Below are positions 39,900 to 40,955 of a stretch of 64,000 nt of DNA, one piece after another. The DNA is from Methanocaldococcus sp. 28A (GTDB lineage: Archaea; AGJL01; Methanococci; Methanococcales; Methanocaldococcaceae), in the NCBI GenBank assembly GCA_049852185.1, contig CP187540.1. One strand, 5' to 3'. A program made the translations under genes and the position numbers. The first letter of the stretch is position 1, and every line of letters starts with the position of its first letter. The notes beneath the pieces are model-generated. The model ran no database searches and was not told the DNA's origin. It saw nothing but the letters and a program-made list of their open reading frames with translations.

Positions 39900-40251
39900 T
39901 TAAGGGATTTAATTTTACTTTCTTGCTTTTATATACCCCTGCCTTAATTTTAGTACTAGAAAATTGATAAAAAGTATTACTAATTTTTTCTGATTAAAAT
40001 TTAGATTTTTTAGAGATTTTTGTTATTTGTTTTTATTGTGTAGATTTTATAGATAAATAAGATTTATTTTATATAAAATAATGTCTGATTATTGAGATTT
40101 TTGTTTATGGTTGTGCATTTTATTTATAAAGAGTTTGCACAATCTTTCTTACTCTTATAAAGGTTTCAATAATTGGGCAGTCAGAAAAATCGGATGTTAA
40201 AAGAAAGTTTTATATAGGAGTTTGTGTATTAGATAAGTAATAGTTGGTAGG
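39900..40251 (+). promoter_or_regulatory. CRISPR leader
   Basis: AT-rich noncoding region directly 5' of the first repeat; BRE/TATA-like GAAAGTTTTATATA at about 40203-40216. Confidence 0.7.
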
Positions 40252-40896
40252 GTTTGAATAGTTAGTCCATTAAAACAAGGATGGAAACTCTTTTATTTTC
40301 TCGTATTGATTTGTACATCCAAGTTTGAATAGTTAGTCCATTAAAACAAGGATGGAAACGATTCAAACATTTTCATCAGATACATTCTTAATCACAAATA
40401 TGTTTCCATGTTTGAATAGTTAGTCCATTAAAACAAGGATGGAAACAAGAAATTATCAAAATTAAAAAAGGAAAAATATGCATTGTTTGAATAGTTAGTC
40501 CATTAAAACAAGGATGGAAACTGGTAATATTGTGCACAACTATGATTAGGCAATTGTGTTTGAATAGTTAGTCCATTAAAACAAGGATGGAAACAATATG
40601 GTTTTGCAAATGGCTAAAAGGGAAGGGTTAAATGTTGAAACGTTTGAATAGTTAGTCCATTAAAACAAGGATGGAAACATTCTACTATTTCTATCATGCC
40701 CTATCACCTCCCTGTTTGAATAGTTAGTCCATTAAAACAAGGATGGAAACTCTACTATAACATTCAACAACCTCTTAAGCTCTAACGTTTGAATAGTTAG
40801 TCCATTAAAACAAGGATGGAAACAATAGGTGAAACTATGGCAACGACTTATGAGATAATGTTTGAATAGTTAGTCCATTAAAACAAGGAATAACAA
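40252..40896 (+). CRISPR. CRISPR array, 9 repeats (GTTTGAATAGTTAGTCCATTAAAACAAGGATGGAAAC, 37 bp) and 8 spacers
   Basis: Repeats start at 40252, 40323, 40410, 40485, 40558, 40642, 40714, 40787 and 40860 (last one degenerate); spacers are 34, 50, 38, 36, 47, 35, 36 and 36 bp. Confidence 0.99.
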
Positions 40897-40904
40897 ATAA
40901 AAAA

Positions 40905-40955
40905 GGCAAAATAATGGGGGAGTATACCAATAGAGGGGGCGAAGCCCCCTCTATG
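40905..40955 (-). repeat. Palindromic repeat family C copy; supplies the stop codon of the methyltransferase gene
   Basis: CCATAGAGGGGGCTTCGCCCCCTCTATTGGTATACTCCCCATTATTTTGCC. Confidence 0.7.

Follow-up and report, generated by a model that had tools for sequence, protein, structure and literature searches.

The stretch of DNA analysed here, called the window throughout, comprises 64,000 nucleotides (nt) of the genome of Methanocaldococcus sp. 28A (C1:704001-768000, where C1 is contig CP187540.1) and contains a CRISPR array. The second spacer of this array, spacer 2 (40360-40409, + strand), is 50 nt long and has the make-up of a repeat-spacer-repeat junction of another array lying in inverted orientation. 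It is probable that this spacer originated as a 50-bp DNA fragment of another array, which was captured by Cas1-Cas2 and inserted in the antisense direction, and in its present state it is most likely an inert fossil of that capture event. It would be a side effect of adaptation proteins sampling array DNA and not a novel form of immunity.

Results

Anatomy of spacer 2

The reverse complement of spacer 2 consists of ATGGAAAC, which is the final 8 nt of the repeat, followed by a 33-mer and then by GTTTGAATC. As it lies in the window, the spacer opens with repeat positions 1-9 in reverse complement (GTTTGAATC, 40360-40368, - strand), continues with a 33-nt core that is presumed to be the spacer of the donor array (40369-40401, - strand), and closes with the final 8 nt of the repeat, also reverse-complemented (ATGGAAAC, 40402-40409, - strand), which are presumed to be the 5' handle produced by Cas6. 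The ends correspond, in reverse complement, to repeat positions 1-9 and 30-37, so that 17 terminal nt match the repeat. The initial annotation had described an inverted unit made of an 8-nt repeat end, a 33-mer and an 8-nt repeat start, and this anatomy is borne out, with a match of 17 nt rather than 16. The final C, which had been treated as an extra base, is in fact position 9 of the repeat in most members of the family.

This ninth base is informative about the source of the fragment. The 37-nt repeat family to which the window array belongs (family 1) comprises 49 repeats in seven places of the genome, and C occupies position 9 in 38 of them. An A is found at this position in all nine repeats of the window array, in one repeat of a two-repeat remnant and in one solitary degenerate copy. 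In related genomes C is again the usual base at position 9 of the 37-nt repeat among the matches listed. Since the C of the insert is without a counterpart in the window array, the donor was another array. The earlier proposal that the spacer was captured from a CRISPR locus is therefore supported, and the ninth base adds that this locus was a different one.

Given the base composition of the spacers in this genome, a 17-nt terminal match would arise by chance with a probability of about 1.5e-10 for a given spacer in a given orientation. With 42 spacers and two orientations taken together this becomes about 1.2e-8, which agrees with the previous judgement that both repeat ends were unlikely to have arisen by chance. 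Among the 42 family-1 spacers, spacer 2 is the only one with a terminal match of at least 5 nt to the repeat ends in either orientation. An internal repeat-like 9-mer in spacer 7 of the array at C1:854227 lies within the shuffle null.

In a fold calculated at 37 °C the ends of spacer 2 pair with the flanking repeats, giving -27.6 kcal/mol against -17.2 +/- 3.0 kcal/mol for shuffled sequences (z = -3.5), and the neighbouring repeat-spacer units have z values of -0.08 and -0.96. This fold is lost at 80-85 °C (-0.46 and 0.0 kcal/mol) and, as the organism is probably a hyperthermophile, no effect on processing is claimed.

Search for a donor and for similar spacers

The 33-mer is unique in the window, and the complete 50-mer matches only itself in the genome, where the next best alignments extend over 13-14 nt. 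The initial annotation had suggested comparing the inner 33-mer with other arrays and with vent viromes. None of the order's 39 other genomes contains the 33-mer, with up to 3 mismatches allowed, and there were 0 exact matches in the viral, genome and metagenome contig collections, so that no donor emerged from this genome, the 39 related genomes or the three collections. Spacers of 33 nt do occur in the relatives' arrays of the 37-nt repeat family, where they account for 6 of 213.

Searches with other spacers gave a similar picture. The arrays of the genome had no protospacer match in the phage and plasmid collections, the first 26 nt of three spacers had 0 matches each in viral contigs, and one array compared with 40 genomes returned only array-to-array matches among the 150 matches listed. 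When 92 spacers of relatives were compared with the genome, the only matches were two parsing artefacts with a truncated repeat.

The base composition of the core depends on the strand that is considered. The count of C minus G is +5 as the core now lies and -5 in the sense orientation of the donor. Across both repeat families, with spacer 2 left out and the relatives restricted to gaps of 20-60 nt (210 spacers), values of -5 or lower are seen in 29 of 326 spacers and values of +5 or higher in 119 of 326. Spacers on the transcribed strand are pyrimidine-rich, with C in excess of G. This strand bias would fit selection for guides that are antisense to mRNA.

The 37-nt repeat is present in 11 of 40 genomes of the order, including 8 of the 16 others in the genus and both genomes (2/2) of a second genus. 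The full antisense signature was found in 1 of the 40 genomes, that of Methanocaldococcus sp. 28A itself, and in 0 contigs of the genome and metagenome collections, in scans restricted to repeats whose ends are exactly these. Of the 40 genomes, 1 likewise has the single junction, in which GTTTCCAT is followed by GTTTGAAT. The antisense terminal pattern is absent from all 75 spacers of the genome's second repeat family, and from all 213 spacers drawn from nine related genomes (37 array loci). Five genomes that belong to another genus of the order contain the 17-mer ATGGAAACTATGGAAAC (G029, G032, G033, G034, where it is found in two places, and G036).

The window array, its leader and its setting

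The genome amounts to 1.556 Mb in two contigs, with 29.7% G+C and a completeness of 99.94%. The window array (40252-40896, + strand) has nine 37-nt repeats, all with A at position 9, and eight spacers. The start-to-start spacings of its repeats are 71, 87, 75, 73, 84, 72, 73 and 73 nt, which correspond to spacers of 34, 50, 38, 36, 47, 35, 36 and 36 nt in order. The Rfam model CRISPR-DR7 covers every repeat over its full length on the + strand (36.3 bits, with a gathering score of 37), so that the same repeat boundaries were reached independently. Spacer 2 is bordered on its 5' side by repeat 2 (40323-40359, + strand) and on its 3' side by repeat 3 (40410-40446, + strand), both of which are full length, identical to the array consensus and matched by CRISPR-DR7. 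The terminal repeat at the leader-distal end (40860-40896, + strand) is degenerate, with 5 mismatches to the consensus and an Rfam score of 24.1 bits.

Upstream of the first repeat is an AT-rich leader of about 200 nt (40052-40251, + strand), which aligns lengthwise with the regions upstream of four other arrays of the same family. This alignment places the leader at the left of the array and indicates transcription of the + strand, making spacer 2 the second-newest spacer. The conservation of the leader suggests that the window array is a competent integration site and that spacer 2 was a recent acquisition. The neighbouring genes are of the housekeeping type (aminotransferase, radical SAM, histone, amidotransferase, methyltransferase, NMD3 and SepRS) and, as there are no cas genes beside it, the array is an orphan. 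Past the array's last repeat, and short of the stop of the convergent methyltransferase gene, there is a G+C-rich perfect hairpin (40930-40955) with, by eye, an 11-bp stem and a 3-nt loop, which resembles a terminator.

Cas genes and other arrays of the genome

The genome encodes two Cas1, one Cas2 and two Cas4 proteins, together with effectors of types I-A, I-B, I-D and III-A. One Cas1, of 334 amino acids (aa), is found with Cas2, Cas4 and the type I-B proteins Cas8b, Cas7 and Cas5, between two arrays of the C variant. The other, of 335 aa, accompanies Cas4 in a cluster of type I-A (Cas8a2, Cas5a, Cas7, Csa5) and type I-D (Cas3', Csc1, Csc2) genes, near which the single Cas6 is also located. 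Both adaptation modules are complete-looking, and both Cas1 proteins are of ordinary length, unfused and with no extra domain. In the type I-B cluster (C1:845001-857000) no Cas3 or Cas6 was seen among the eight open reading frames of at least 80 aa, and a gene for a RecJ-family nuclease adjoins it. A type III-A operon, csm1-csm5, lies elsewhere with two CARF proteins and is without an array or adaptation genes of its own. A search of the genome with the Pfam model RVT_1 for reverse transcriptases gave 0 matches, and the same search was positive in three control genomes.

A second repeat family, of 30 nt, makes up ten arrays with 75 spacers, examples being C1:389880-390753 and C1:96958-97817, the latter near the csm operon. 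The 30-nt and 37-nt families have exactly the final 8 nt, ATGGAAAC, in common; two arrays of the 30-nt family carry ATGAAAAC in its place. In Cas6 systems CRISPR RNAs (crRNAs) bear an 8-nt 5' handle, and by comparison with such systems the common ATGGAAAC fits a Cas6 handle that is used by all of the effectors. Spacer lengths in the genome as a whole fall into a main class of 34-38 nt with a long tail of 41-51 nt. As 24 of 117 spacers are of at least 44 nt, a prespacer of 50 nt is no special case.

Several other irregularities were seen in the arrays of this and related genomes. An identical 47-nt spacer is present in two arrays (C1:847666-848370, with the spacer at L006:2995-3041, - strand, and C1:1540998-1541265, with the spacer at L053:409-455, + strand) that differ in the neighbouring spacers, which suggests either that one prespacer was captured twice independently or that the arrays exchanged a single unit. 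One 36-nt spacer of the array at C1:1390538-1391594 occurs twice in a row (L055:478-513 and 544-579, - strand), a spacer-repeat unit having been duplicated in tandem. At a distance of 393 nt past the end of a nine-repeat array (C1:184811-185958) there is a leaderless remnant of two repeats, as if one array had been split by insertion or rearrangement. Two loci of a related genome, G006 (L017 and L019), share the same 44-nt spacer, a repeat truncated after 26-27 nt and a degenerate repeat, and look like a duplicated remnant array. The second contig of Methanocaldococcus sp. 28A, C2, is a 10,393-nt exact concatemer with a period of 3,896 nt (6,497 of 6,497 compared positions identical). It is probably a 3.9-kb circular plasmid that was assembled about 2.7 times over, and it carries no CRISPR repeat.

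Discussion

Proposed capture of array DNA

Copying from an array is the only simple route to a repeat end, a spacer-sized core and a repeat start in one block. The source fragment would have run from the final 8 bp of one repeat through a complete 33-bp spacer into the opening 9 bp of the repeat that follows, and the source array would have belonged to the same repeat family in its C-at-position-9 variant. Cas1-Cas2, possibly together with Cas4, would have treated this fragment as an ordinary prespacer and placed it at the orphan array's leader end, in the orientation opposite to donor transcription, and the later acquisition of spacer 1 would have shifted it to second place. The likely origin of the fragment would be the nicked and gapped DNA that is made by spacer integration at leader-proximal repeats. 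If the donor was one of the cell's own arrays, the donor unit would since have been lost, or would never have been fixed.

There is a precedent for such capture in Pyrococcus furiosus, an organism with Cas1, Cas2 and Cas4. In one study of it, CRISPR arrays are described as chromosomal hotspots for protospacers, which the authors connect with the nicks made by integration at the leader-proximal repeat, and protospacers past the first spacer are placed on the minus strand (PMC5737086). That is the same antisense orientation as the orientation of spacer 2. A similar hotspot for spacer acquisition adjoins an array of Escherichia coli.

Several considerations weigh against this explanation. The donor spacer was found nowhere, so that an origin in an array would have to be read from 17 nt of repeat alone. 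A core that is rich in G in the donor orientation is a hint, of roughly four-fold weight, that the donor orientation was the unusual one. With no protospacer for any spacer, selection of the captured fragment by a protospacer adjacent motif (PAM) cannot be claimed. Spacer 2, as assembled, is a single case in view of the counts given above for the 40 genomes, the collection contigs and the 213 spacers of relatives. Finally, the start exactly at the 8-nt handle boundary and the near symmetry of the two ends (8 and 9 nt) are left as coincidences of about 1 in 18 to 1 in 9 each, taking as reference the random sampling of an array, in which 18 possible 50-nt windows hold the whole 33-mer core.

Own or foreign donor

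We slightly favour one of the cell's own arrays over a foreign array as the donor. The hotspot biology of the P. furiosus type and the presence of five C-variant arrays in the same cell would, by analogy, speak for an own donor, and the missing donor unit speaks against it. Loss of that unit needs only recombination between repeats, which could account for its absence. Moreover, the crRNA of spacer 2 would be the complement of the donor transcript, so that selection by the type III-A system would favour loss of the donor unit.

The same capture from a foreign array, either in the chromosome of another strain or species or in a mini-array of a virus or plasmid, is possible but on the unlikely side. 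This alternative differs from the favoured explanation in the donor and the function and not in the chemistry of capture. If it were true, spacer 2 would be a real immune memory, and a Csm complex of type III-A that carries the spacer 2 crRNA would base-pair with RNA transcribed from the foreign array and set off defence. In keeping with it, the core is without a match in the genome, like every other resident spacer, and resident spacers in nature are almost always non-self. The C-at-9 repeat is widespread, being present in 8 of the genus's 16 other genomes and in both genomes (2/2) of the second genus. The cell also has the full csm1-csm5 operon with its two CARF proteins, and the antisense orientation is the one needed for pairing with a donor transcript, although orientation by itself has a 1-in-2 chance. 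Archaeal viruses with mini-arrays exist, according to one report (PMC6858448), and spacers derived from the genomes of related species are mentioned in another (PMC12612501). However, no virus or plasmid with the repeat was detected, there being 0 contigs in IMG/VR, none in the phage or plasmid collections and none on contig C2, an absence from collections that does not prove absence in nature. The 33-mer itself is also missing from the 39 related genomes and three collections searched.

The flanks of the presumed donor bear on what spacer 2 could do. Read on the strand that has the spacer's own sequence, the donor flank is ...CTAAC, and the triplet at the PAM position, AAC, is the one with which every repeat closes. 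As a rule PAMs are unlike repeat ends, which allows arrays to escape attack, according to a survey of spacer targets (10.1101/2021.05.04.442622). Because the triplet here is that of the repeat end, type I interference against the donor would not be expected. For type III, pairing between the 3' flank of the target and the crRNA tag would be confined to positions -1 to -3. Such pairing might be read as self, which would count against a foreign donor being recognised. With that reservation, the type III-A system could sense the donor transcript, a possibility that is absent from the initial annotation. That account had instead suggested that spacer 2 might act as an anti-crRNA or cause self-targeting of an array. 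To judge from sequence, the spacer 2 crRNA would indeed be antisense to the transcript of the donor array, but no such target exists in this genome, and there is no matching spacer to pair with or to cut, so that neither effect would be expected at present.

Possible recapture of an integration intermediate

It is also conceivable, though we regard it as doubtful, that the core was never stably resident in any array. A 33-bp prespacer may have been midway through integration in a C-variant array when the gapped intermediate broke, and the broken piece was recaptured into the window array. In a full-site intermediate both 3' ends of the prespacer are linked to repeat DNA, each of them to the 5' end of one strand of the single-stranded repeats. 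A break within the single-stranded repeats would leave a duplex with 3' repeat tails of 9 and 8 nt, to be bound again by Cas1-Cas2, for which a duplex with short 3' tails is the preferred substrate. By this reasoning a full-site intermediate would have the layout seen here, in which each core strand has repeat sequence at its 3' end and the two stretches, of 9 and 8 nt, are almost equally long. An origin of this kind would explain both the absence of the core from all arrays and the unselected look of its orientation in the donor.

Some further spacers could be related to such intermediates. Two spacers of the 30-nt family, both of 48 nt (L051:472-519, - strand, and L050:893-940, + strand), have at their ends a direct copy of the start of the repeat that comes next, 14 nt long in one and 9 nt in the other, and would fit half-site intermediates, and another 9-nt case of direct copy is present in a related genome (G005:C1:1456805-1456827). 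The mirror image, in which a repeat end is copied at the start of a spacer, was seen in 0 of 17 genomes of the genus, and there is no such case for the 37-nt family (0 of 40). These spacers could be array-derived prespacers, products of half-site integration or small tandem duplications. The numbers are, however, tiny, the 9-nt cases are AT-rich and marginally above chance, and all three cases of direct copy are equally explicable as local tandem duplications. To our knowledge no such recapture reaction has been described, although no literature search was aimed at it. Misplaced staggered cuts during integration were considered separately and rejected, as by reasoning they give direct duplications and not inverted repeat ends.

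Improbable origins: a crRNA template or an assembly artefact

The initial annotation had put forward a processed crRNA, copied by reverse transcription, as one source of the spacer. A mature crRNA composed of the 8-nt handle, a 33-nt spacer and 9 nt of trimmed 3' handle would have been copied into DNA, or integrated directly, and fixed. The start of the unit does coincide with the presumed Cas6 cut site, both repeat families of the genome have just these 8 nt in common, and 50 nt is a plausible length for a trimmed crRNA. The boundary to which the annotation had pointed is real, but it is a coincidence of no more than about 1 in 18 among 50-nt windows that hold the whole 33-mer. Elsewhere in the genome, spacers that bear repeat sequence are without the handle. 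The RVT_1 search, positive in its controls, found none of the RT-Cas1 fusions or other reverse transcriptases that the annotation had thought worth seeking, and both Cas1 proteins are unfused, so that reverse transcription of a processed crRNA finds no support. A crRNA template would then require a route from RNA to spacer that is independent of any recognisable reverse transcriptase, for example integration of RNA or of an RNA:DNA hybrid by Cas1-Cas2 followed by repair synthesis, and we hold both the template and such a route to be highly improbable.

An artefact of assembly, from a chimeric or inverted read, or a local inversion within the window array is just as hard to credit: repeats are difficult to assemble, but two intact 37-nt repeats exactly border the insert, the insert has the C variant that the window array is without, the core is nowhere else in the assembly so that no sense copy was there to be flipped, and the genome is in 2 contigs at 99.94% completeness. 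The related idea, also raised in the initial annotation, that a spacer was flipped together with its repeat ends during integration is rejected by the A/C difference and the intact flanking repeats. A flip of a unit of the window array itself would have left A at position 9, as in 9 of 9 of its repeats, where the insert has C, and a simple inversion with breakpoints inside repeats would have truncated two repeats, both of which are intact.

Significance and comparison with known systems

If spacer 2 was captured from an array as proposed, the adaptation machinery of a methanogenic archaeon can store a whole repeat-spacer-repeat junction from another array, a kind of capture seen until now chiefly in laboratory cultures that were sequenced deeply. 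The fragment's exact ends, of 8 and 9 nt and with one of them at the Cas6 site, provide a read-out by which random fragments, recaptured intermediates and crRNA templates might be separated. As type III-A is present in the same cell, an antisense guide derived from an array also makes a natural test case for the way in which a reaction to CRISPR transcripts is avoided. A phrase search of open-access papers and preprints, without their supplements, found no description of a resident spacer that is an inverted repeat-spacer-repeat junction. A large survey of spacer targets removes hits inside arrays, as it states (10.1101/2021.05.04.442622). With this filter such spacers would be systematically overlooked, which may explain the lack of descriptions.

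Spacer 2 can be compared with several systems that are already known. Acquisition of spacers from RNA is the province of RT-Cas1, and spacer 2 is similarly outlined as a processed crRNA from its 8-nt handle, but this genome differs in having neither an RVT_1 match nor an RT-Cas1 fusion. Mobile elements can carry host-like repeats in the form of mini-arrays, solitary repeat units or RNA anti-CRISPRs, as described in two reports (PMC6858448, PMC10651486). A host spacer taken from such a region would hold repeat ends, as spacer 2 does. Unlike that situation, however, no mobile element with this repeat is found in IMG/VR or in the phage and plasmid collections, and a phrase search of open-access papers and preprints found no report of a host spacer against a mini-array.

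Self-targeting spacers, the basis of CRISPR autoimmunity, are derived from cellular DNA, and spacer 2 would likewise come from cellular rather than viral DNA if the donor was an own array. It departs from that pattern in that no target is left in the genome, that the triplet of the repeat end at the PAM position would make type I attack unexpected, and that loss of the target needs here only recombination between repeats.

The closest likeness is to the array hotspots of P. furiosus. The case described there (PMC5737086) and that of spacer 2 would have in common the origin of spacers in the cell's own arrays and the nicking by integration, and they share the minus strand and the set of Cas1, Cas2 and Cas4. 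They differ in that the events in P. furiosus were transient ones in deep-sequenced laboratory cultures, with 0 of 200 resident spacers matching the host genome there, and in the PAM, which is CCN in P. furiosus, where the flank here is AAC. In Methanocaldococcus sp. 28A a single event has been fixed, and its product is of 50 nt as against the usual length. The mechanism proposed for spacer 2 is acquisition from an array, which is already known from such cultures, and the spacer is a rare natural example of it. What is unusual is that it has been fixed in a natural genome as a complete unit with both junctions, and that a repeat variant marks the donor as another array.

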